Sequence record: NC_048063.1
Source of the DNA: Escherichia phage LL2
Reading direction: 5' to 3' (one strand)
DNA length: 39,382 nt
In this document: positions 1,777-39,382 of the stretch, in pieces
Position numbering within the stretch: position 1 is the first letter of the stretch
Layout of the letters: each line of letters begins with the position of its first letter
Made by a program: the position numbers and the translations under genes
The notes under the pieces: model-generated
Seen by the model: the letters and a program-made list of their open reading frames with translations, nothing else
What the model was told of the DNA's origin: nothing
Database searches by the model: none

Positions 1777-2889
1777 ATGACTTTCTCCGAAGCACAAGCC
1801 GCACTTGAAGCTATCCGCAATCTACCGATTGAGCGCCTGAACGAACGCCAGCCCATGCTGGTGACTCTTGCGGCTGCCATCGTGAACGATGAGACCCAAG
1901 ACGGGCAACTGACGCAGGCAGCAGGAAACACGGCGCTAGGGCGCATGGACTACTGGCAGACCCTAGCGGCGCGTATGCGTGATGTTGGTTTCATCAAGCT
2001 GGGCAATGGTCACTTTAGCGCAGCGTATGAGCACGCATTGTTGCCGGGCAAGGTTATCAAGGTAGGCTTTAAGAAAGAGGACTCAGGCGCTGCCTATGCT
2101 GCATTCTGCCGTATGAATCAGGGCCGTGAGGGTATCCCTACGGTGTACGACATTCAGCGTCATGCTGGTTGTTACACGGTGGTTCTTGATTATCTGAATC
2201 CGCTTAACTACTGGTGCGATGGTGAGAGTGATAAGATTCGTCACCACTTTCAGGCCGCAAGGGAAATCATTGAGGAGGATTGCTTCGATACCGCCGAAGA
2301 GTACCCAATAAGTGACAGCTTTATTGAGACCTGCAAGGATATCCGCAAGTTCTTCTTAGGAATCGCATCGTTCGATTGTCACAGCGGGAACATGATGAAA
2401 GACCAGATGGGACGCCTGATTATCACAGACCCGGTATCATTCAGCGCAGGCGACAAGTTAAGGCCGGGTGAGTTCCACTGTGACCCGGATGAACTCATCG
2501 CTGAGATTGAGGTGCTGAGGGCGCAGGAGGCTATCGAGCGCTGCAAGGCACGCAAGGCTAGGCGTGACCCTAAAGGAACCTTTCAGGCAGCGCGTAAAGC
2601 ACGCATCAAGTGGCGCAGAAAGGCCTCTAAGCGCGTGAAGCGCAACGCTAAGGTACTCGCTAGGATGCGCATGGACGCCAATCAGAATCGCAGGGATGAG
2701 CCTAGGGCGCGTATGGTGTGGGGCGATAAGCACTGGCGCAACGCTTGGATGCACCACAACAACCTAAACTTTGCAGAACTGGAGCGCCGCGCTGCTGCGG
2801 CAATGATGATGATGCACGACGAGGTGCGCATTCAGTGGGGCAAACCGTTACACATAGACGCATACCTTGACAGGAGACTGCAAGGCTGA
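1777..2889 (+). CDS. 0.7: Serine/threonine protein kinase, host shut-off (gp0.7)
   Basis: 370 aa; the segment LGNGHFSAAYEHALLPGKVIKVGFKKEDSGAAYAAFCRM...GIPTVYDIQRHAGCYTVVLD closely matches T7 gp0.7 kinase domain; basic Arg/Lys-rich C-terminal tail. Confidence 0.85.
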   Translation: MTFSEAQAALEAIRNLPIERLNERQPMLVTLAAAIVNDETQDGQLTQAAGNTALGRMDYWQTLAARMRDVGFIKLGNGHFSAAYEHALLPGKVIKVGFKKEDSGAAYAAFCRMNQGREGIPTVYDIQRHAGCYTVVLDYLNPLNYWCDGESDKIRHHFQAAREIIEEDCFDTAEEYPISDSFIETCKDIRKFFLGIASFDCHSGNMMKDQMGRLIITDPVSFSAGDKLRPGEFHCDPDELIAEIEVLRAQEAIERCKARKARRDPKGTFQAARKARIKWRRKASKRVKRNAKVLARMRMDANQNRRDEPRARMVWGDKHWRNAWMHHNNLNFAELERRAAAAMMMMHDEVRIQWGKPLHIDAYLDRRLQG

Positions 2890-2959
2890 TAGAGTCTTTT
2901 CTTACAGGTCATCATTAGATGGCCTGAATAGGAACGATTTATTCACAATGAGGTAAGCA

Positions 2960-5614
2960 ATGAACATCATCGAAAACATCGAAAAGAATGACTTCTCCGA
3001 AATCGAACTGGCTGCTATCCCGTTCAACACATTGGCAGACCACTACGGTAGCGCATTGGCTCGTGAACAACTGGCTTTAGAACATGAGTCTTATGAGTTA
3101 GGCGAGCGCCGCTTCCTCAAGATGCTTGAGCGTCAGGCGAAAGCTGGTGAGATTGCAGACAACGCAGCCGCTAAGCCATTACTCGCTACGCTTCTCCCTA
3201 AGTTAACCGCACGCATCGTTGAGTGGCTCGAAGAGTACGCCTCTAAGAAGGGCCGCAAGCCTGTAGCCTACGCACCACTCCAATCACTCAAGCCGGAGGC
3301 GTCCGCGTTTATCACACTCAAGGTTATCCTTGCGTCACTGACCAGCACGAACATGACAACCATTCAGGCCGCTGCTGGTATGCTGGGTAAGGCCATTGAG
3401 GATGAGGCACGTTTCGGGCGTATCCGTGACCTCGAAGCGAAGCACTTCAAGAAGCACGTTGAGGAACAGCTTAACAAGCGCCACGGGCAAGTCTACAAGA
3501 AAGCCTTTATGCAGGTGATAGAGGCCGATATGATTGGTCGAGGTCTGCTTGGTGGCGAGGCATGGTCTAGCTGGGATAAAGAAACTACGATGCACGTAGG
3601 GATTCGCCTGATTGAAATGCTTATCGAGTCCACTGGTCTGGTGGAATTACAGCGACACAACGCAGGTAACGCAGGTTCTGACAATGAGGCACTGCAACTG
3701 GCCCAAGAGTACGTCGATGTGTTAGCGAAGCGTGCAGGAGCACTGGCTGGCATCTCTCCGATGTTCCAACCGTGTGTTGTACCGCCGAAACCTTGGGTAT
3801 CAATCACAGGTGGCGGCTATTGGGCTAACGGTCGCAGACCTTTGGCACTCGTTCGCACTCACTCTAAGAAGGGACTGATGCGCTATGAGGATGTTTACAT
3901 GCCAGAAGTTTACAAGGCGGTCAACATCGCACAGAACACCGCATGGAAAATCAACAAGAAAGTTCTTGCGGTTGTCAATGAGATTGTTAACTGGAAGAAT
4001 TGCCCGGTCGCAGACATTCCATCGCTGGAGCGCCAAGAGTTACCGCCTAAGCCGGACGACATTGACACCAACGAGGCAGCGCTCAAGGAGTGGAAGAAAG
4101 CCGCCGCTGGTATCTACCGCTTGGACAAGGCACGAGTGTCTCGCCGTATCAGCTTAGAGTTCATGCTGGAACAGGCCAACAAGTTTGCAAACAAGAAAGC
4201 AATCTGGTTCCCTTACAACATGGACTGGCGCGGTCGTGTGTACGCTGTGCCAATGTTCAACCCGCAAGGCAACGACATGACGAAAGGCCTGCTGACCCTC
4301 GCTAAAGGCAAGCCAATCGGTGAGGAAGGTTTCTACTGGCTGAAAATCCACGGTGCGAACTGTGCGGGTGTCGATAAGGTTCCTTTCCCTGAGCGCATCG
4401 CGTTCATTGAGAAGCACGTAGACGACATTCTGGCTTGCGCTAAAGACCCAATCAATAACACTTGGTGGGCCGAGCAGGATTCACCTTTCTGCTTCCTCGC
4501 GTTCTGCTTCGAGTATGCAGGCGTTGCGCACCACGGTCTGAGCTACAATTGCTCACTGCCGCTGGCGTTCGACGGGTCTTGCTCTGGTATCCAGCACTTC
4601 TCCGCGATGCTCCGCGATGAGGTAGGTGGTCGTGCGGTTAATCTGCTGCCAAGCGAAACCGTGCAGGACATTTACGGCATCGTTGCACAGAAAGTGAACG
4701 AGATTCTCAAACAGGATGCAATCAACGGAACACCTAACGAGATGATTACCGTGACCGACAAGGACACCGGGGAAATCTCTGAGAAGCTCAAGCTGGGAAC
4801 CTCAACGCTGGCGCAACAGTGGCTGGCATATGGTGTAACCCGTAGCGTAACTAAACGTTCGGTCATGACGCTGGCTTACGGTTCTAAGGAGTTCGGCTTT
4901 CGTCAACAGGTACTGGACGACACCATTCAGCCTGCGATTGACAGCGGTAAGGGCTTGATGTTCACCCAACCTAACCAAGCGGCTGGCTATATGGCTAAGC
5001 TGATTTGGGACGCGGTGAGCGTGACCGTAGTCGCAGCGGTTGAGGCGATGAACTGGCTAAAGTCTGCCGCCAAGCTGCTGGCTGCTGAGGTCAAGGACAA
5101 GAAAACCAAGGATATTCTGCGCCACCGTTGCGCGGTTCACTGGACTACGCCGGACGGCTTCCCGGTCTGGCAGGAATACCGCAAGCCACTCCAGAAGCGT
5201 CTCGATATGATTTTCTTAGGGCAATTCCGTCTGCAACCGACGATTAATACCCTCAAGGATTCAGGCATTGACGCGCACAAGCAGGAGTCTGGCATCGCTC
5301 CTAACTTTGTTCACTCACAGGATGGTAGCCATCTACGCATGACAGTCGTTTATGCTCACGAGAAGTATGGCATTGAGTCCTTTGCGCTCATCCATGACAG
5401 CTTTGGGACTATTCCGGCAGACGCTGGTAAGCTCTTTAAGGCTGTGCGTGAAACGATGGTTCTCACCTACGAGAACAACGATGTGCTGGCAGACTTCTAT
5501 GACCAGTTTGCAGACCAGCTACACGAGACCCAACTGGACAAGATGCCTCCGCTTCCGAAGAAAGGAAATCTGAACCTGCAAGACATTCTCAAGTCTGACT
5601 TTGCCTTTGCATAA
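2960..5614 (+). CDS. 1: Single-subunit DNA-dependent RNA polymerase (gene 1)
   Basis: 884 aa, same length as T3 RNAP; start MNIIENIEKNDFSEIELAAIPFNTLADHYG and end ...HSQDGSHLRMTVVYAHEKYGIESFALIHDSFGT...DFAFA are T7/T3 RNAP hallmarks; promoters in the window are T3-type. Confidence 0.97.
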   Translation: MNIIENIEKNDFSEIELAAIPFNTLADHYGSALAREQLALEHESYELGERRFLKMLERQAKAGEIADNAAAKPLLATLLPKLTARIVEWLEEYASKKGRKPVAYAPLQSLKPEASAFITLKVILASLTSTNMTTIQAAAGMLGKAIEDEARFGRIRDLEAKHFKKHVEEQLNKRHGQVYKKAFMQVIEADMIGRGLLGGEAWSSWDKETTMHVGIRLIEMLIESTGLVELQRHNAGNAGSDNEALQLAQEYVDVLAKRAGALAGISPMFQPCVVPPKPWVSITGGGYWANGRRPLALVRTHSKKGLMRYEDVYMPEVYKAVNIAQNTAWKINKKVLAVVNEIVNWKNCPVADIPSLERQELPPKPDDIDTNEAALKEWKKAAAGIYRLDKARVSRRISLEFMLEQANKFANKKAIWFPYNMDWRGRVYAVPMFNPQGNDMTKGLLTLAKGKPIGEEGFYWLKIHGANCAGVDKVPFPERIAFIEKHVDDILACAKDPINNTWWAEQDSPFCFLAFCFEYAGVAHHGLSYNCSLPLAFDGSCSGIQHFSAMLRDEVGGRAVNLLPSETVQDIYGIVAQKVNEILKQDAINGTPNEMITVTDKDTGEISEKLKLGTSTLAQQWLAYGVTRSVTKRSVMTLAYGSKEFGFRQQVLDDTIQPAIDSGKGLMFTQPNQAAGYMAKLIWDAVSVTVVAAVEAMNWLKSAAKLLAAEVKDKKTKDILRHRCAVHWTTPDGFPVWQEYRKPLQKRLDMIFLGQFRLQPTINTLKDSGIDAHKQESGIAPNFVHSQDGSHLRMTVVYAHEKYGIESFALIHDSFGTIPADAGKLFKAVRETMVLTYENNDVLADFYDQFADQLHETQLDKMPPLPKKGNLNLQDILKSDFAFA

Positions 5615-29321: not shown

Positions 29322-32300
29322 ATGAGCTACGATAAGAACAAACCTAGCGAGTTCGATGGGTTATTTCAAAAAGCGGCAGACAAACATGGGGTCTCCTATG
29401 ACCTGCTTCGTAAATTAGCATTCAATGAGTCCAGTTTCAATCCAAAGGCCAAATCACCAACTGGCCCGAAGGGTCTCATGCAGTTCACCAAGGGTACAGC
29501 CACTGCGCTGGGACTCAAGGTCACTGATGCAGACGATGATGACCGTTACAACCCTGAGTTGGCTGTGGATGCAGCCGCTCGTCACCTGAGTGACCTCATT
29601 CGTAAATATGATGGGGATGAGCTTAAGGCAGCCTTAGCGTACAACCAAGGCGAGGGCAGAAATGGTGCCCCTCAGATGCAGGCCTACGACAAAGGTGATT
29701 GGGCCTCAATCTCTGAGGAAGGTCGTAACTATATGCGCAACCTGATGGACGTAGCTAACAGTCCTCGCAAGGGGGACTTGGAGGCGTTCGGCGGTATCAC
29801 CCCAAAGGCTAAGGGCATTCCATCGGGGGATGCATTTGCTGGAATCGGGAAGAAGCAGACGGTAGGAACCGACCTGCCGGAGTCAACTGGATTCAAAGTG
29901 GAGGGTAAAGAGCAGAAAGCACCTAACGTGCCTTATGCTAAGGACTTTTGGGAAAAGACTGGAACAACACTGGACGAGTTTAACTCACGCTCTACCTTCT
30001 TCGGAATTGGAGATGCAACAAGTGCTGAGCTTCACAACTCTGTACTTGGAGTTGCTTTCCGTGCAGCCCGTAGCGACGATGGTTTTGATTTGTTCAAGGA
30101 CACCATTACGCCTACCCGTTGGAATAGCCACACTTGGACTCCAGAAGAGCTAGAGCGAATCCGTAAGGAGGTGAAGAACCCCGCGTACATCAACGTAGTC
30201 ACTGGAGGCTCTCCTGAGAATCTGGACGCCCTCATTAAGATGGCGAATGACAACTACGAGATGGACGCACGGTCTGCCGATGCTGGTGTTGGTGCCAAAC
30301 TTACTGCTGGTATCGTCGGTGCTGGTGTAGACCCGCTGAGTTACGTGCCGCTAGTAGGCGTAGCCGGGAAGGGTCTCAAGGTGGTTAACAAGGCTTTCAT
30401 TGTGGGTACTCAAAGTGCTGGCCTCGCTGTTGCCTCTGAGGGTCTCCGTACATCAATCGCTGGTGGAGAAGCCCACTATGCTGATGCTGCTTTAGGTGGT
30501 CTGATGTTCGGTGCCGGGATGAGCGCAATCAGTGACGCTATCGCCGCTGGTATTCGCCGTTCCCGTGGTACTGAGGTTGTTAATGACTTCGCTCCTATGG
30601 CACACCGCTTGGAAGCCCGTGAGACCGCTCTGAACTCTGGTGGGGAAGACCTGACCCGTATGCCTAGCGAGAACCGTGTGTTCGACCGTGAGCACGCTGG
30701 CGTTGAGTATTCACCTCTGGAGACCGAGCCGGGTGCCGTTGTGTTGCCTCAAGGTCAAATCCTTAGCGACACCAACCCGATGAACCCTCAGACTCTTAGC
30801 GAGTTCGAGGCGGTCAACCCTGAGCGTGCCTCTCGTGGTATCTCTTTGGGTGGTTTCACTGAGATTGGCTTGAAGACTCTCCGCTCTGAGAACCCGACTG
30901 TTCGCTCCATTGCGAGTGACCTTGTGCGTTCTCCGACAGGGATGGAATCAGGCTCTAATGGTAAGTTCGGTGCGACTGCTTCTGACATTAAGGAGCGGCT
31001 CCACGCGAACAATCAGCGCACCTACAATCAGCTTTATGATGCTGTGCGTACTGCAATGAAAGACCCTGAGTTCTCCACGGGTGGGGCCACAATGAGCCGT
31101 AAGGAAATCCGACAGGAAATCTACAAGCGTGCAGCCTTGGCGATTGAGCGGCCTGAGTTCCAAGCAAACCTGACAAAGGGTGAGCGGAACGTGATGAACA
31201 TCCTCAAGCAGCACTTTGACCTCAAACGTGAAATCATGGAGAACCCGTCAATCTTTGGCAACACCAAGGCGGTAAGTATCTTCCCCGGCTCACGCCACAA
31301 GGGAACCTACGTGCCAAACGTGTACGACCGCGCTATCAAGATTGAGATGGTTAAACGCTACGGTAATGATGGCTTGCAGCGAGCAATCGCGGAGTCATGG
31401 TTGACGTCTTATCGCGCACGTCCAGAAGTCAAAGCGAGGGTCGATGAGTACCTGATGGAACTCAACGGTCTCAAATCCGTGCAGGAAGTTACGCCGGAGA
31501 TGGTGCAGAAGCACGCGATGGATAAGGCGTATGGTATTTCACACGCTGACCAGTTCTCTGCCTCCTCTGTCATTGATGATAACATTGAGGGTCTGGTGGG
31601 AATCGAGAACAACAACTTCTTGGAAGCCCGTAACATGTTCGACAGTGACATGGCGGTGACTCTCCCTGATGGTAACACGTTCTCTGTGAATGACCTGCGT
31701 ACCTATGACATGGCTGAAATTCTCCCTGCATACGACCGCCGAGTTGATGGTGACGTTGCAATCATGGGTGGTTCCGGTAAGACTACCAAAGACCTGAAAG
31801 ATGAAATCATGGCGCTGGATAAGCAGTCAGAGGGTAACGGCACACTGAAAGGTGAAGTGGAAGCCCTCAAGGACACCGTGAAGATTCTTACTGGTCGTGC
31901 TCGTAGGAACCCGGAAGGCGCTTGGGGTACAGCCCTGCGCTCCGTCAATGACCTCACGTTCTTTGCTAAGAACGCCTATATGGGCGCACAGAACGTTACT
32001 GAAATCGCTGGTATGCTGGCGAAAGGTAACGTCTCTGCGATAACTCACGGAATACCCATGATTAACGATTGGGTCAACCGTGGTAAACCGCTTCGTGCCT
32101 CTGAGATTAAGGAGCTACACGGGATGGTGTTCGGTAAGGAACTAGACCAACTAATCCGTCCGGGACGTGAAGACCACGTGCGACGACTCCGGGAGTCTAC
32201 GGACACCAGCGCTGCGGTTGCCAATGTGGTCGGTACGATTCGTTTCGGTACTCAAGAGTTGGCTGCACGCTCTCCTTGGACAATGCTCCTAAACGGAACA

Positions 32301-33284
32301 TCAAACTACATTCTTGATGCTGCCCGTCAGGGTGTGCTTGGGGATGTGGCTGGAGCGGCCCTTGCTGGGAAAGCCTCTAAGTTCGGTAAGGCAAACTACC
32401 TTAAGTCTGCCTCTATCAGCCCTGAGCAGTGGAATGGAATCAAGCAGTTGTTCAGAGACCATGCGACTCGTGGAGAAGATGGTAAGTTCACCATTCGTGA
32501 CAAACAGGCTTTCGCTAACGACCCACGTTCAATGGACTTGTGGCGACTGGCCGACAAGGTGGCGGATGAGACTATACTGCGCCCTCACAAGGTTTCCTCA
32601 CAGGACTCCAAAGCGTTCGGTGCAGGGGTGAAGATGGTGATGCAGTTTAAGAACTTCGTCATCAAGTCACTTAACTCCCGGTTCGTCCGTAGCTTCTACG
32701 AGGCAACGAAGAACAACCGTGCGCTAGACCAAGCGTTGACTCACATCATCTCTTTGGGTCTAGCTGGTGGTTACTACGTTGGGCAGGCGCACCTTAAGGC
32801 TGCAAGTCTACAGGAGCACAAACGTAAGGAGTACCTTAAGAACGCCCTTGACCCTAAGATGATTGCTCATGCATCAATCTCTCGTAGTTCACACTTAGGT
32901 TCACCATTGAGTATCTACGACATGTTCGCTGGGATGGTTGGTAGTGATACCTATAAGTACACCCGCTCTACGGTACTCCCTAAAGAGTCCGAGAAGCGTG
33001 ACCCTACCAAGGCAGTGACAGGTAGACAGGTAGCTTCAACTATCGCAGGTGCAATTGGTGAGCAGGTTCCGGGTTTAGGTTTTGTTGGCTCTGTGGGTGC
33101 AACAGCTATTAACGCCGCTTCCCTGCTGTCTTCTCCGAACAAGGCTACCGCTCTGGAGTTCCGTACAGGCCTCTTCAACACCTCTCGTGAGTTGATTCCT
33201 AATGACCCGCTATCGCAGCAACTCATTATGAAAATCTACGAGGCCAATGGTATCCGCATAAAGGAGATACCGAAGAAACAATAA
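29322..33284 (+). CDS. 16: Internal virion protein D with N-terminal lytic transglycosylase domain (gene 16)
   Basis: 1320 aa versus 1318 in T7; N-terminal LAFNESSFNPKAKSPTGPKGLMQFTKGTA is a soluble lytic transglycosylase motif. Confidence 0.93.
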   Translation: MSYDKNKPSEFDGLFQKAADKHGVSYDLLRKLAFNESSFNPKAKSPTGPKGLMQFTKGTATALGLKVTDADDDDRYNPELAVDAAARHLSDLIRKYDGDELKAALAYNQGEGRNGAPQMQAYDKGDWASISEEGRNYMRNLMDVANSPRKGDLEAFGGITPKAKGIPSGDAFAGIGKKQTVGTDLPESTGFKVEGKEQKAPNVPYAKDFWEKTGTTLDEFNSRSTFFGIGDATSAELHNSVLGVAFRAARSDDGFDLFKDTITPTRWNSHTWTPEELERIRKEVKNPAYINVVTGGSPENLDALIKMANDNYEMDARSADAGVGAKLTAGIVGAGVDPLSYVPLVGVAGKGLKVVNKAFIVGTQSAGLAVASEGLRTSIAGGEAHYADAALGGLMFGAGMSAISDAIAAGIRRSRGTEVVNDFAPMAHRLEARETALNSGGEDLTRMPSENRVFDREHAGVEYSPLETEPGAVVLPQGQILSDTNPMNPQTLSEFEAVNPERASRGISLGGFTEIGLKTLRSENPTVRSIASDLVRSPTGMESGSNGKFGATASDIKERLHANNQRTYNQLYDAVRTAMKDPEFSTGGATMSRKEIRQEIYKRAALAIERPEFQANLTKGERNVMNILKQHFDLKREIMENPSIFGNTKAVSIFPGSRHKGTYVPNVYDRAIKIEMVKRYGNDGLQRAIAESWLTSYRARPEVKARVDEYLMELNGLKSVQEVTPEMVQKHAMDKAYGISHADQFSASSVIDDNIEGLVGIENNNFLEARNMFDSDMAVTLPDGNTFSVNDLRTYDMAEILPAYDRRVDGDVAIMGGSGKTTKDLKDEIMALDKQSEGNGTLKGEVEALKDTVKILTGRARRNPEGAWGTALRSVNDLTFFAKNAYMGAQNVTEIAGMLAKGNVSAITHGIPMINDWVNRGKPLRASEIKELHGMVFGKELDQLIRPGREDHVRRLRESTDTSAAVANVVGTIRFGTQELAARSPWTMLLNGTSNYILDAARQGVLGDVAGAALAGKASKFGKANYLKSASISPEQWNGIKQLFRDHATRGEDGKFTIRDKQAFANDPRSMDLWRLADKVADETILRPHKVSSQDSKAFGAGVKMVMQFKNFVIKSLNSRFVRSFYEATKNNRALDQALTHIISLGLAGGYYVGQAHLKAASLQEHKRKEYLKNALDPKMIAHASISRSSHLGSPLSIYDMFAGMVGSDTYKYTRSTVLPKESEKRDPTKAVTGRQVASTIAGAIGEQVPGLGFVGSVGATAINAASLLSSPNKATALEFRTGLFNTSRELIPNDPLSQQLIMKIYEANGIRIKEIPKKQ

Positions 33285-33302
33285 ACCCTCACTAAAGGGA
33301 GA
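33280..33302 (+). promoter_or_regulatory. Phage RNAP promoter (phi17-like) AATAAACCCTCACTAAAGGGAGA
   Basis: Consensus match; overlaps gene 16 stop. Confidence 0.75.
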
Positions 33303-33355
33303 GAGGTCACATTCTGGCCTCTTCTCTCCTAATGCTAATTTACAAAGGAGGTCAC

Positions 33356-35098
33356 ATGGCTACAACTATTAAGACCGTGATGACTTACCCGCTGGATGGT
33401 TCAACTACGGACTTTAATATTCCGTTCGAGTATCTGGCGCGTAAGTTCGTCCGAGTGACCCTTATCGGTGTTGACCGAAAGGAACTCACCTTGAATCAAG
33501 ACTATCGTTTTGCAACTAAGACCACAATCTCCACAACGAGAGCATTGGGGCCAGCGGACGGTTATAACCTTATCGAGATTCGGCGGTACACCTCAGCGAC
33601 TGAACGTCTGGTTGACTTTACGGATGGCTCAATCCTCCGTGCGTATGACCTGAACATCTCGCAGGTGCAGACCCTCCACGTTGCTGAGGAAGCGCGTGAC
33701 CTTACCGCTGATACGATTGGCGTTAACAACGATGGTGACTTGGATGCTCGTGGTCGTCGTATCGTGAACGTTGCGGACGCTAAAGACCCCGGTGACGCAA
33801 TCAACTTAGGTCAAGTCCAGAAGTGGAACGACTCTGCGTTGAACTCTGCGAACCGCGCACGGGCTGAGGCCGACCGTGCAACTGTGCGTGCTTCAGAGGC
33901 TGCTACCTCTGCGGGTAACTCTGCGAGTTCTGCAAGCCTGTCCCGTGATTGGGCTATCAAGGAATCTCCGGTGGAAGGAACCTTTAAGTCTTCCCGGTCG
34001 TATGCCATTGACTCTATGGCGTACCGGGATGCGTCCAAGAGTTCTGCCGATGCTAGTGCTGCAAGTGCTGGTGCCGCTAAGACCTCTGAGATTAACGCGA
34101 ATAACTCAAAAATCGCTGCGAAGACCTCTGAGACCAACGCGAAGACCTCTGAGAACAACGCTAAGGCTTCCGAGGAACGAGCCATTGAGGAAGCAAATAA
34201 GCTGGAGAACATGAATGATTTGGTTGGTGCAATTGATAAGGTAGATGGGGCAAATGTGTACTGGAAAGGAAATATTAACGCTAATGGGAGGCTTTTCCTG
34301 ACCACAAACGGTTTTGACTGTGGACAGTATCAACAGTTCTTTGGTGGTGTTACTTATCGTTACTCTGTCATGGAGTGGGGCGATAAGGACGGATGGCATT
34401 TGTATTCCGAGAGGAAAACCGAAGGCGGGAGGCCAACGCTCAATGTAAATGGTGATGTGAGCGTCGGTTTTGACATTCGGACGGGTGCTAATCAATTTGC
34501 TAATCACATGTTTGTACACGACAGGGTACAATACTGGCCCGGTGCTGGCATGTTTGTTAACCAGTTGTCTGTCCCAGAAGCGCCATTTATCAAACAAGGG
34601 AGATATGAGGCCCCATCTGGTAACAGCTTATACGCCCCTATTGTTAAGGGAATCATACGGACGGCAGGTCACGGGTATGACACAGCGCTGTCCTTTGGTA
34701 CTCTAACACAGGGTAACGGGTCGTTTGCTTCTGCGGGTATTCATGCGATTGGGGATAACGGCACTTCTGGTTTCTGGGAATTTAACCCTAACAATAGGTC
34801 CTTCCGTAGTCAAGGTGATGGGTTCTTTGGCAACACTACTGTCTATCAGGATGGTAACATCGGTGGCCCTACGTGGGGTGGCGACCTAGCGCACTGGCTC
34901 AGAGTAAATACGGTTAACCACATTGCTATGGGCGGAGTCAACCAGTCAATAGTGTGGAATAGCTACGGTGTTTCTGATGGTGGCGGCAAGGTAGTAACTG
35001 GCGTTGTAAACTCTAACGCTGATGGTGCGATAGACTATTGTCAGTGGCGTGTTATGCAATACGTTCGTAACGACGGTCAATGCTTTAATATTTACTGA
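33356..35098 (+). CDS. 17: Tail fibre protein (gene 17), conserved N-terminal tail-attachment domain, coiled-coil shaft, divergent distal domain
   Basis: N-terminus MATTIKTVMTYPLDGSTTDFNIPFEYLARKFV...LVDFTDGSILRAYDLN matches T7 gp17; start at ATG 33356 with AAGGAGG RBS; central KVDGANVYWKGNINANGRLFLTTNGFDCGQYQQFFGG is also T7-like. Confidence 0.92.
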   Translation: MATTIKTVMTYPLDGSTTDFNIPFEYLARKFVRVTLIGVDRKELTLNQDYRFATKTTISTTRALGPADGYNLIEIRRYTSATERLVDFTDGSILRAYDLNISQVQTLHVAEEARDLTADTIGVNNDGDLDARGRRIVNVADAKDPGDAINLGQVQKWNDSALNSANRARAEADRATVRASEAATSAGNSASSASLSRDWAIKESPVEGTFKSSRSYAIDSMAYRDASKSSADASAASAGAAKTSEINANNSKIAAKTSETNAKTSENNAKASEERAIEEANKLENMNDLVGAIDKVDGANVYWKGNINANGRLFLTTNGFDCGQYQQFFGGVTYRYSVMEWGDKDGWHLYSERKTEGGRPTLNVNGDVSVGFDIRTGANQFANHMFVHDRVQYWPGAGMFVNQLSVPEAPFIKQGRYEAPSGNSLYAPIVKGIIRTAGHGYDTALSFGTLTQGNGSFASAGIHAIGDNGTSGFWEFNPNNRSFRSQGDGFFGNTTVYQDGNIGGPTWGGDLAHWLRVNTVNHIAMGGVNQSIVWNSYGVSDGGGKVVTGVVNSNADGAIDYCQWRVMQYVRNDGQCFNIY

Positions 35099-35110
35099 TA
35101 GGAGGACGAT

Positions 35111-35635
35111 ATGGGAACTTTACGTCACTATAAGAATTTCGTAAATTACACTCCAGAACGCACCAAAGAGAATGCAGACCTTCTAGACCACGGAGTCGGT
35201 TTCTCAAAGGATGAGAACGGGAATGACTGGTATGAACTTCGCAAGACATTCCGTGAGGATACATGGAAACTTGTCTACGCCAAAGATGGTTCAGTTATTC
35301 AATGTGAACAGGATGTTCAGGAGTTAGCCGTTCAGGGATCTGCTGGGGTGGTTGAGCTTGAGGAAATCCCTGCTGAGTATTCTCGGTACAATATGGTTCA
35401 GTGGTGGTGGGACGGCGATAAGCTAACTTGGTATCCTCGGTACTTTGAGCACAAGAAGGCCCAGCTAATCTCTATGGCCTCCAAGAAGATTGAGCAGTAT
35501 GCTGACTTTATAGCTCTTGGGGAGGAGGGATTAGAGGGTATACTAAATGCGTGGCGAGCCTATCGCCTTGCTGTATATAAAGTAGACCTGAGTGTTCTAC
35601 CTTTCTATGACTGGCCCGAGCAACCAGAAACCTAA
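35111..35635 (+). CDS. Tail-fibre assembly chaperone, lambda Tfa-like
   Basis: 174 aa; C-terminus LNAWRAYRLAVYKVDLSVLPFYDWPEQPET follows the conserved Tfa C-terminal pattern (AW..YR..L..VD.S....WP..P); AGGAGG RBS; sits directly after the fibre gene. Confidence 0.7.
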   Translation: MGTLRHYKNFVNYTPERTKENADLLDHGVGFSKDENGNDWYELRKTFREDTWKLVYAKDGSVIQCEQDVQELAVQGSAGVVELEEIPAEYSRYNMVQWWWDGDKLTWYPRYFEHKKAQLISMASKKIEQYADFIALGEEGLEGILNAWRAYRLAVYKVDLSVLPFYDWPEQPET

Positions 35636-35694
35636 TGACAACCTCAAGGAAAGACGTGTAGTCCACGGATGGACTCTTACAAGGAGGACACTAC

Positions 35695-35898
35695 ATGCTG
35701 TCTTTAGATTTTAACAACGAGTTAGTCAAGGCTGCACCTATTGTTGGTACAGGTGTGGCTGATGGCGCTGCGAGGCTTTTCTTCGGGCTGAGTCTTAATG
35801 AGTGGTTCTATGTTGCCGCTATCGCCTACACAGTGGTTCAGATTGGTGCCAAGGTAGTCGATAAGATGATTGACTGGAAACGTGCAAACAAGGAGTAA
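35695..35898 (+). CDS. 17.5: Holin, class II (gene 17.5)
   Basis: 67 aa; MLSLDFNNELVKAAPIVGTGVADGAARLFFGLSLNEWFYVAAIAYTVVQIGAKVVDKMIDWKRANKE is nearly identical to T7 gp17.5. Confidence 0.9.
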   Translation: MLSLDFNNELVKAAPIVGTGVADGAARLFFGLSLNEWFYVAAIAYTVVQIGAKVVDKMIDWKRANKE

Positions 35899-35901
35899 CC
35901 T

Positions 35902-36168
35902 ATGAGTGACAAGACTTTAATCAAGCTGCTGGAGATGCTAGACACTGAGATGGCACAGCGTATGCTTGCTGACCTCCAGAGCGAGGAACGCCGAACTCCG
36001 CAGCTTTACAACGCAATCGGCAAACTGTTAGACCGCCATAAGTTCCAAATCAGTAAGCTGACCCCGGATGAGAACATCCTTGGCGGTCTCGCGGCAGGTC
36101 TGGAAGACTACAACAAAGTGGTCGGCCCTAATGGTCTGACTGACGATGAGACTATCACGCTACAGTAA
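35902..36168 (+). CDS. 18: Terminase small subunit (gene 18)
   Basis: 88 aa versus 89 in T7; position before Rz/terminase large. Confidence 0.8.
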   Translation: MSDKTLIKLLEMLDTEMAQRMLADLQSEERRTPQLYNAIGKLLDRHKFQISKLTPDENILGGLAAGLEDYNKVVGPNGLTDDETITLQ

Positions 36169-38925: not shown

Positions 38926-39382
38926 CCCTAAAGGTTATACCTAAAGATGCCCTGTAGTTCGTAATGGTCTTACAGGGTCTTCTGGTGTCTCCTAGCTATC
39001 CCTTCGGGATGCGCCTATGGTCTCACCTATGGTGTGGCCTTACCTAAAGTGGTTGCCTAAAGAGACCCTTTAAGAATTTACCACAAAAATCTGAATGGGT
39101 ATCTCACAGTTCAAGAACCCAAAGTACCCCCATAGACCTCCTAAAGCCACCTAAAGCCAGCCCTACCCCTAGGGTTTAACCTTCGGTTAACCTTGGGTAT
39201 CTCCTCAAGTGGCCTATAGGATAGCCTAAAGTGTGGCGTAAAGTCAATACCTAAAGTGATGGGTGACTATTGGAGACTTAAAGAGTGTCCTAGTGTACCA
39301 GTTCGATAGTACATCTCTATGTGTCCCTATCTGTTAGCCTCATAAAGTAAACCCTAAAGCCTCCACCTAAAGACCAGACCTA
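38926..39382. repeat. Array of CCTAAAG heptamer-containing short repeats flanking the terminal repeat; continues at 1..45
   Basis: More than ten CCTAAAG occurrences, including the 26-mer AAGCCTCCACCTAAAGACCAGACCTA at 39357..39382, again at 1..26 and partially at 27..43. Confidence 0.6.
39102..39338. repeat. Terminal repeat unit (single copy in this rotated assembly); physical genome left end at about 39102
   Basis: TCTCACAGTTCAAGAACCCAAAGTACCCCCATAG... parallels the T7 left terminus TCTCACAGTGTACGGACCTAAAGTTCCCCCATAG...; GTGTCCCTATCTGTTAGCC parallels the end of the T7 repeat; boundaries inferred by analogy. Confidence 0.5.

Follow-up and report, generated by a model that had tools for sequence, protein, structure and literature searches.

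In Escherichia phage LL2, a T3/phiYeO3-12-like Teetrevirus whose complete genome (39,382 nucleotides) is the window analysed here, gene 17 very probably encodes a T7-type tail fibre with a distal region of the Mu gpS/P2 gpH family, which homology suggests was recombined in together with a Mu gpU-type chaperone gene. Judged segment by segment, the fibre is made up of five or more modules, each with a history of its own, and not of two. The swap is of an ordinary, previously described kind: the architecture is already on record from the annotation of Kvp1 (2008) and from a description of BASEL phage EmilieLinder (2025). The value of our analysis is mainly corrective: the mosaic fibre proposed by a sequence-only reading of this DNA is confirmed, its details are corrected and nothing new is added.

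Locus and module map of the fibre

All features described here lie on the + strand. The fibre gene (33356–35098, stop codon counted; 580 aa, exact match to YP_009812356.1) is a real open reading frame, with its own ribosome-binding site and promoter. It starts at the ATG at 33356, not at the in-frame ATG further upstream at 33332, as indicated by the ribosome-binding site AAGGAGGT (33346–33353) and by an N terminus that aligns with the MANVIKTV of T7 and T3. A phi17 promoter of T3/phiYeO3-12 type, AATAAACCCTCACTAAAGGGAGA, can be read at 33280–33302 (exact T3-type match at 33285–33302); it is one of five exact copies of ACCCTCACTAAAGGGAGA across the window, and promoter phi17 is annotated at the equivalent position in phiYeO3-12 and Kvp1. 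This promoter transcribes gene 17 and presumably also the chaperone gene downstream; scans for sigma-70 promoters and terminators near the locus gave nothing above shuffle expectation. The internal virion protein gp16 is encoded on one side of gene 17 (29322–33284) and the holin, gene 17.5, on the other (35695–35898); with its phage-RNA-polymerase promoter in front, this slot has the layout of T7, T3 and phiYeO3-12, bar the inserted tail fibre assembly (Tfa) gene. The genome backbone is 94–95% identical to phiYeO3-12-like teetreviruses, and RefSeq already names gene 17 as tail fibre and the next gene as tail fibre assembly protein.

Module borders were set by a per-segment identity table together with blastn breakpoints. 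The fibre is not collinear with gp17 of T3 or T7 over its whole length: in BLASTP only aa 1–368 align (57% identity to T7, 55% to T3), with nothing significant beyond, and blastn shows nucleotide identity dropping or stepping sharply at 34233, 34405 and 34850. Module A (aa 1–150, 33356–33805) is the T7-type N-terminal tail-attachment domain; PF03906 Phage_T7_tail covers aa 1–155 (E 8.7e-59, 198 bits versus a gathering score of 25.2), the PDB structures of the T7 gp17 N terminus (7boz, 8e4g) are matched, and identity is 78% to T7 (75% at the nucleotide level) and 98–99% to teetreviruses. Module C (aa 294–352, 34235–34411) is a T7/Kvp1-type connector, VDGxNVYWKG ... GFDCGQYQQFFGG ... SVMEWGD, 81% identical to T7, 71% to T3 and 76% to Kvp1 and only 19–29% to ViciousJeremy, phiCFP-1 and EmilieLinder; at the nucleotide level, 34190–34405 is 86.6% identical to T7.

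The sequence-only reading had held that the fibre is T7-like to about aa 330, with the junction just after GFDCGQYQQFFGG (aa 319–331) and a foreign distal domain, unrelated to T7, directly behind it. Such a two-part mosaic fits the end of T7/T3 similarity in BLASTP at about aa 368 and the mere 11–26% identity to T7 of the distal 228 residues, yet we regard it as unlikely. T7 likeness holds for aa 1–150 and for aa 279–352 (73–81%), but not for the shaft between them (aa 151–278, 11–36%), which has its own history, and T7 nucleotide identity is not uniform over 33356–34350. The proposed junction is misplaced: nucleotide similarity to T7 reaches 34405 (aa 350) and an independent Mu-like homologue begins at aa 364, which puts the T7 break at aa ~350–364, about 20–30 residues past GFDCGQYQQFFGG, and makes the non-T7 part about 228 residues long and not about 250 as had been estimated. 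This part gives no BLASTP alignment with T7, but a 43-column DGNIxGxxWGG motif region is still shared (hhalign probability 89%; distal profile match to T7 structure 4a0t, E 1.7e-5). A two-part scheme also leaves out an additional breakpoint at aa 499 and the co-transferred chaperone gene. In all, the junctions mapped in LL2 lie at 34190–34233, ~34405–34445, 34850 and ~35645–35660.

The shaft and its heptad array

Module B (aa 151–293, 33806–34234) is the shaft, predicted from AF2 secondary structure and residue periodicity to be alpha-helical in the manner of a coiled coil and briefly interrupted at aa 203–212. Its identity is only 10–40% to T7/T3 but 97–100% to Klebsiella phage ViciousJeremy, whose similarity to LL2 at the nucleotide level stops at 34233; about 20 teetreviruses of Klebsiella, Pantoea and E. 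coli match without gaps over gene nucleotides 1–878 (876–878 nt) and then diverge. The AF2 monomer places helices at 151–202 and 213–282 with low pLDDT (31–56), and the full-length model is weak (pLDDT 42, pTM 0.22); its secondary structure alone was used, with caution. Hydrophobic/Ala periodicity is 3.5 residues in aa 151–202 (p < 0.001) and 7 residues in aa 236–290 (p ~ 0.015). The proximal shaft of T7 gp17 is a trimeric alpha-helical coiled coil; on that background, the low-confidence helices and the modest periodicity statistics, significant in parts of the shaft, suggest that LL2 may have one too.

Three copies of AAGACCTCTGAG had been reported in the shaft, and all three are exact (34079, 34121 and 34142), encoding KTSEIN, KTSETN and KTSENN within aa 242–268. 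The repeat itself, though, is a tandem array at 34075–34165 in which a 21-nt (heptad) unit recurs 4.3 times (TRF period 21, score 91; repeat family D1); it contains all three and reads AKTSEIN / ANNSKIA / AKTSETN / AKTSENN / AKASEER. With up to one mismatch, AAGACCTCTGAG matches four times in the window versus 0.25 expected, a count that none of 100 shuffles reached. Leclercia 10164-302, Seera and ViciousJeremy carry it at identical offsets, and in them two neighbouring 21-nt units agree almost perfectly (20/21); phiCFP-1, phiYeO3-12, T7 and T3 hold no exact copy. At the position of the array, T7, T3 and phiCFP-1 align seven residues shorter, and the array includes one 21-bp tandem duplication, by which the shaft lineage probably gained one heptad.

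A tandem array with near-identical adjacent units and a one-heptad difference from T7, T3 and phiCFP-1 could also be taken for a hypervariable or contingency element, in which slipped-strand heptad changes tune fibre length or turn the gene on and off. We find this scarcely credible. No close relative examined departs from LL2 in the number or placement of the copies (about 20 phages without gaps, and six members of the 90% cluster); merely two units are near-identical, too few for frequent slippage; and the array cannot switch the gene off, since a 21-nt unit keeps copy changes in frame.

The distal region and its chaperone

Module D (aa 353–498, 34412–34849), the putative proximal part of the Mu/P2-family distal region, is 11–26% identical to T7 and 54–58% to Kvp1. 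From aa 364 it matches the variable S-fibre ORF of the Mu-like Yersinia phage Tongde (35% identity, E 4e-29), an ORF that adjoins a hin invertase. Module E (aa 499–580, 34850–35095), the fibre tip, begins at the conserved motif DGNIGGPTWGG. On sequence grounds both modules are related to Mu gpS/P2 gpH-type fibre ends, and the C-terminal tip is homologous to Mu gpS in sequence or structure. The pyramid and tip with which the T7 fibre ends (residues 371–553, PDB 4A0T) were not found in the LL2 fibre. An exhaustive search with the distal region returned 139 representative clusters at E ≤ 1e-3, many spanning module D alone. The best 91 of these 139 include 27 with the P2 gpH-type anchor PF12571, 16 with Phage_fiber_2 repeats, five with the T7 anchor and one with the lambdoid prophage-fibre N terminus PF08400. 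Independent homologues of the distal part, on which the proposal of a mosaic turned, occur in fibres of Mu-like, P2-like, P1-like and lambdoid type. Leaving T7-like phages aside, identity to distal-domain representatives reaches about 47%, and a search of 5,426 complete E. coli genomes (≥65–70% nucleotide identity) yielded no donor prophage for the distal region and Tfa.

Could the distal region instead be a fast-evolving vertical descendant of an ancestral T7-type pyramid and tip, with no horizontal transfer? An AF2 monomer model of aa 341–580 (mean pLDDT 62) has no Foldseek match in the PDB at E ≤ 1e-3, its best match being T7 gp17 residues 371–553 (probability 0.99, E 2e-3), and T7 and LL2 have the DGNIxGxxWGG region in common. 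Against this stand the sharp nucleotide steps at 34233, 34405 and 34850, and a tip and Tfa that are 84% identical to those of a Teseptimavirus with a 74% identical N-terminal domain and no nucleotide match in shaft or connector. Moreover, in the sister teetreviruses ViciousJeremy, phiCFP-1 and phiYeO3-12 this slot is filled by distal ends that are unrelated, carriers of the module are mostly anchored by the P2-type rather than the T7 domain (27 against 5 among the best 91 of 139), and T7 and T3 have no accompanying Tfa gene. We consider purely vertical descent very improbable.

Twelve nucleotides past the gene 17 stop, behind its own ribosome-binding site TAGGAGGA (35100–35107), begins a gene for a 174-aa tail fibre assembly protein (35111–35635; exact match to YP_009812357.1) of the Mu gpU/P2 gpG/lambda Tfa family. 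PF02413 Caudo_TAP covers aa 44–173 (E 3.6e-10, 40.5 bits versus a cutoff of 22.1), PHROG 136 ('tail fiber assembly protein') matches with E 9e-39, and aa 5–173 are collinear with residues 2–175 of Mu gpU, itself 175 aa, over its full length (5yvq_B, E 7.6e-10). The U-like gene of Tongde is 26% identical (E 1e-14), and the best match in the phage collection outside T7-like phages reaches 34%. T7, T3, phiYeO3-12 and phiCFP-1 have no Tfa gene at this position; a fibre gene with an adjoining Tfa gene occurs also in Kvp1, EmilieLinder, Tongde and PCSE1. The right edge of the swapped cassette lies upstream of the holin gene at 35636–35660, read from the sequence and from blastn, in which backbone similarity to the cassette-less T7, T3, phiYeO3-12 and phiCFP-1 restarts at 35645–35660. 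The chaperone gene, the main difference from T7/T3, had escaped the sequence-only reading.

Members of this family need not act as folding chaperones alone. Mu Tfa secures trimerisation of the distal fibre and stays attached to it (North et al. 2019, as summarised in PMC9608196), Mu and Ur-lambda Tfa are present in mature virions and help host recognition (PMC9608196), and fibres transiently capped by a chaperone are cited in the BASEL paper (PMC11990801). These precedents, along with the label 'tail fiber protein' that ESh10 and PGX1 give the Tfa homologue, would suit a 174-aa protein whose main role is in the virion, as a second receptor-binding component or a cap. This we hold to be possible but doubtful: both the family signature and the match over the full length point to Tfa chaperones, and retention differs across the family, since T4 gp38 and Pam3 gp25 are not in virions (PMC9608196). 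Such a role is in any case compatible with, and not exclusive of, the joint transfer of tip and chaperone that we prefer.

Under that preferred explanation, LL2 gp17 would be a homotrimer in which aa 1–150 plugs the fibre into the tail, aa 151–293 would form a helical, heptad-patterned shaft, aa 294–352 serves as connector and aa 353–580 would bind the receptor. The last of these and the chaperone gene at 35111–35635 would have been gained together by recombination as one cassette, and the cassette, not the T7-like backbone, would set host specificity. Two conserved motifs, EANKLxN at the shaft end and DGNIxGxxWGG at the tip neck, sit at observed breakpoints and are candidate crossover points. 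By analogy with Mu, Tfa would bind the C-terminal tip of the fibre, drive its trimerisation and folding and perhaps remain bound, and gp17 may depend on it for both. More speculatively, the connector (aa 294–352) and the DGNIxGxxWGG neck might act as general 'sockets' for Mu/P2-type myovirus tips on a podovirus fibre, with Tfa retained as a cap or co-adhesin to give a two-protein receptor-binding tip; we put this forward with considerable reserve.

The LL2 locus is a textbook case of modular tail fibre exchange, in which the receptor-binding tip moves with its chaperone. Exchange of this kind probably explains why near-identical teetrevirus backbones infect Escherichia/Shigella, Leclercia, Serratia or Klebsiella. 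Anyone who wants to swap the host range of T7-like phages by engineering can take the mapped junctions as a practical guide, with the warning that the Tfa gene must move along with the tip.

Comparison with known fibres

Relative to T7/T3 gp17, LL2 shares the gene slot, the phi17 promoter, the PF03906 domain, a shaft of similar length that is predicted to be helical, the connector and the DGNIxGxxWGG neck motif; it differs in a shaft one heptad longer and of low identity, in C-terminal 228 residues beyond the reach of BLASTP and in a separate Tfa gene, absent from T7 and T3. The closest relatives of its fibre and Tfa are the teetreviruses Shigella phage ESh10, Leclercia phage 10164-302 and Serratia phage Seera, whose fibre genes are full-length collinear with LL2 at 94–96% nucleotide identity (all 580 aa), with Tfa 94–97% identical and the same heptad array. 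Only point differences separate them: residue 577, for instance, is Cys in LL2 and Arg in all others, and the KTSENN of LL2 is KTSETN in most close relatives.

Kluyvera phage Kvp1, a Berlinvirus, is collinear in connector, distal region and Tfa (genes 17 and 17.2), with about 70% nucleotide identity over 34175–35999 and protein identities of 62% for the distal region and 82% for Tfa, but has the backbone of another genus and a different shaft (17–28% identity). Its gene 17.2 carries an existing annotation that likens the product to the P2 gpG assembly protein, and the Kvp1 paper remarked on the 17–17.2 divergence and did not analyse the chaperone (Lingohr et al. 2008, PMC2579914). In Escherichia phage EmilieLinder (Bas103, Teseptimavirus), the tip (aa 499–580) is 72% and Tfa 93% identical to LL2, tip and whole Tfa gene forming one block (34850–35691) of 84% nucleotide identity; the N-terminal domain, at 74%, is the sole other part of gene 17 matching at the nucleotide level. 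Since shaft, connector and module D are unrelated (16–30% identity), the left junction of this block lies at the DGNIGG motif. The EmilieLinder Tfa has been called Mu-like, and a hexameric fibre–Tfa complex was predicted (Humolli et al. 2025, PMC11990801). Compared with Mu gpS/gpU and P2 gpH/gpG, which sit on a myovirus baseplate anchor, the LL2 tip is mounted on a podovirus T7-type anchor; unlike Mu, LL2 has neither an invertase nor an alternative S'/U' pair, and identity is just 20–35%.

Gene 17 and its modules

The tail fibre gene 17 (33356–35098, + strand) is a real ORF, as the sequence-only reading held. Its functional start is ATG 33356, with the RBS AAGGAGGT in front, and the 580-residue product of 33356–35095 is identical to RefSeq YP_009812356.1 (tail fiber protein, Escherichia phage LL2). 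An in-frame ATG at 33332 was set aside, the RBS preceding ATG 33356 instead. T3-type phage promoters (ACCCTCACTAAAGGGAGA, ≤2 mismatches) number 12 between 139 and 38552, every one on the + strand; five are exact copies (20520, 21555, 26004, 33285 and 38535), and the motif match at 33285–33302 lies close upstream of gene 17. The LL2 backbone is 94–95% identical to phiYeO3-12-type teetreviruses. The first 26 nt of the record (1–26) recur exactly at 39357–39382; T3-like genomes should carry a direct terminal repeat, of which the deposited sequence seems to retain a mere stub.

That the fibre joins T7-like to foreign sequence proved right: BLASTP against gp17 of T7 (57% identity) and T3 (55%) aligns aa 1–368, neither protein gives an alignment past residue 368, and the distal homologues are independent (Mu-like, Fels-2 gpH, SJ46). 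The junction had been placed directly after the GFDCGQYQQFFGG block (aa 319–331), but T7 similarity stops at aa ~350, 20 residues further on. Judged from per-segment protein identities and blastn breakpoints, the fibre is a mosaic of five modules rather than two. Module A (aa 1–150) is the PF03906 anchor, 78% identical to T7 and 98–99% to teetreviruses. The shaft, module B (aa 151–293), shares 10–40% identity with T7/T3 and 97–100% with Klebsiella phage ViciousJeremy, whose nucleotide similarity to gene 17 ends at 34233 (blastn); gene nucleotides 1–878 match without gaps in ~20 Klebsiella, Pantoea and E. coli teetreviruses, with divergence after. Module C, a connector (aa 294–352), is 81% identical to T7, 71% to T3, 76% to Kvp1 and 19–29% to ViciousJeremy, phiCFP-1 and EmilieLinder. 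Module D (aa 353–498) shows 11–26% identity to T7 and 54–58% to Kvp1, and module E, the tip (aa 499–580), 72% to EmilieLinder and 70% to Kvp1. By blastn, module C nucleotides 34190–34405 are 86.6% identical to T7 (anchor, 75%), which points to unusually strong constraint or else to a later, independent exchange with the Teseptimavirus lineage. The LL2 fibre ends ...GQCFNIY, with Cys577 at 35084–35086; all relatives sharing the tip (ESh10, Leclercia 10164-302, Seera, Kvp1 and EmilieLinder) have GQRFNIY. The cysteine may be an error of sequencing, or else a mutation linked to host range or adaptation.

A heptad repeat in the shaft

The shaft motif described as triplicated does occur in three exact copies (AAGACCTCTGAG; 34079, 34121 and 34142), and at ≤1 mismatch the window holds 4 matches against 0.25 expected, a count reached by no shuffle. 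All three copies are really members of a 21-nt-period array of 4.3 units (34075–34165; Tandem Repeats Finder), encoding the heptads AKTSEIN / ANNSKIA / AKTSETN / AKTSENN / AKASEER. The 12-mer offsets are the same in Leclercia 10164-302, Seera and ViciousJeremy, where two neighbouring 21-nt units differ at 1/21 positions (AAGACCTCTGAGACCAACGCG/T). The exact 12-mer was not found in phiCFP-1, phiYeO3-12, T7 or T3, and in alignment T7, T3 and phiCFP-1 are shorter at the repeat by exactly seven residues. The shaft gained one heptad by a single 21-bp in-frame tandem duplication, which is fixed in its lineage. Copy number of the unit, singled out earlier as a point of comparison, is constant in all relatives examined. 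AF2 predicts helices, at low confidence, for aa 151–202 and 213–282; hydrophobic/Ala periodicity is 3.5 residues in aa 151–202 (p<0.001) and 7 residues in aa 236–290 (p~0.015), consistent with a coiled coil with a small-residue (Ala/Ser) core. The proximal rod of T7 gp17 is reported to be a triple coiled coil (Steven et al. 1988).

The tip–Tfa cassette and its relatives

The sequence-only reading overlooked the next gene, a putative tail fibre assembly (Tfa) chaperone of 174 residues (35111–35635, + strand), which is preceded by the RBS TAGGAGGA and starts 12 nt past the stop codon of gene 17. The product of 35111–35632 is identical to RefSeq YP_009812357.1 (tail fiber assembly protein, Escherichia phage LL2), and both genes are rightly annotated already in the public record. 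In Pfam, Tfa scores above threshold for Caudo_TAP; it also matches PHROG 136 ('tail fiber assembly protein') and, over its full length, the Mu chaperone gpU (5yvq_B, E 7.6e-10). Whereas in T7, T3, phiYeO3-12 and phiCFP-1 the holin gene directly follows gene 17, LL2 has Tfa between, and similarity to these cassette-less genomes picks up again at 35645–35660 (blastn).

Tip and Tfa together (34850–35691) are 84% identical to Teseptimavirus EmilieLinder (blastn), the left edge of the block coinciding precisely with the codon that opens the DGNIGG motif; elsewhere gene 17 matches EmilieLinder only in the N-terminal domain (74%). Fibre tip and chaperone gene move as a pair. The Tfa proteins of EmilieLinder and Kvp1 (gene 17.2, annotated 2008) are 93% and 82% identical to that of LL2, and Kvp1, a Berlinvirus, is collinear across modules C, D, E and Tfa at ~70% nucleotide identity. 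The Klebsiella teetreviruses have the anchor and shaft of LL2 with a different distal end and Tfa; alternative tip–Tfa cassettes appear common among teetreviruses. In ViciousJeremy (2501–4632 of locus L008) the slot holds another distal end and a shorter Tfa (136 aa, 25% identity/72 residues).

Searching with the distal region finds independent homologues, as the mosaic reading required, in Mu-like, P1-like, P2 gpH-anchored and lambdoid-type fibres. In phage records (tblastn), it occurs in further T7-like phages, namely Kvp1 and, with 57–60% protein identity in their fibres, SPLA4, ESh6 and ESh2; Mu-like Yersinia phages, Fels-2 gpH, P1-like phage SJ46 and others match at 29–38%. When 1.84 billion representatives were searched exhaustively with HMMER, 139 clusters matched at E<=1e-3; among the best 91 of them, the P2 gpH-type anchor PF12571 occurs in 27, Phage_fiber_2 repeats in 16, Gp53-like_C in 14, the T7 anchor in 5 and a lambdoid prophage-fibre N-terminus in 1; the matches fall into two sub-modules, D and E. 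Profile A1, built from 16 homologues of full coverage, matches 8ju3, a structure of Mu gpS (E 3.2e-15), and gives a weak match to T7 gp17 4a0t (E 1.7e-5), hhalign confining the T7 relationship to 43 columns about DGNIxGxxWGG (probability 89%). The AF2 monomer of aa 341–580 is a moderate model (mean pLDDT 62; 57–88 from model residue 81 on). We read the distal region as a Mu/P2-family tip, remotely related to the T7 tip, on sequence-profile and gene-neighbourhood evidence; fold evidence alone is insufficient.

In the Mu-like Yersinia phage Tongde, the homologue is a variable S-end ORF that adjoins a hin invertase and is followed by a U-like gene, the cassette switched by inversion in Mu-type phages. 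The ORF is unfused (2252–3040; locus L005, 1533–5504), with U'/S genes beyond in opposite orientation; the arrangement resembles an invertible fibre switch of the G-segment type, and its genes carry hypothetical-protein annotation only. One library protein (P0008, 643 aa) joins a distal-domain match (217–365) to a Caudo_TAP domain (512–635) in one polypeptide, either a natural fibre–Tfa fusion or a read-through gene call. Outside T7-like phages, the closest donor candidates are only ~47% (distal region) and 34% (Tfa) identical, and complete E. coli genomes gave zero nucleotide matches to the distal region plus Tfa.

Host specificity and known systems

Beyond the homologies, breakpoints and gene order observed here, we infer the mechanism from the Mu/P2 paradigm, by which Tfa would bind the C-terminal tip of the fibre and nucleate its trimerization and folding. 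As summarised in PMC9608196, Mu Tfa remains on the virion and helps host recognition (North et al. 2019), and a fibre–Tfa hexamer is predicted for EmilieLinder in the BASEL paper (PMC11990801, S7 Fig). On this paradigm, the module C–E plus Tfa cassette should set host specificity. Near-identical backbones with an LL2-type cassette were isolated on Shigella, Leclercia and Serratia, those with another tip and a different Tfa, of 136 aa, on Klebsiella; this split of isolation hosts by cassette fits such a role.

The LL2 mosaic is genuine yet ordinary, the corrections being to its breakpoint, module number, repeat nature and missed chaperone gene. Mosaic tail fibres with joints at conserved motifs are a classical finding, reportedly described by Haggård-Ljungquist et al. 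(1992) and Sandmeier (1994). The fibre–Tfa architecture of LL2 is likewise already known, from the annotation of Kvp1 and the description of EmilieLinder.
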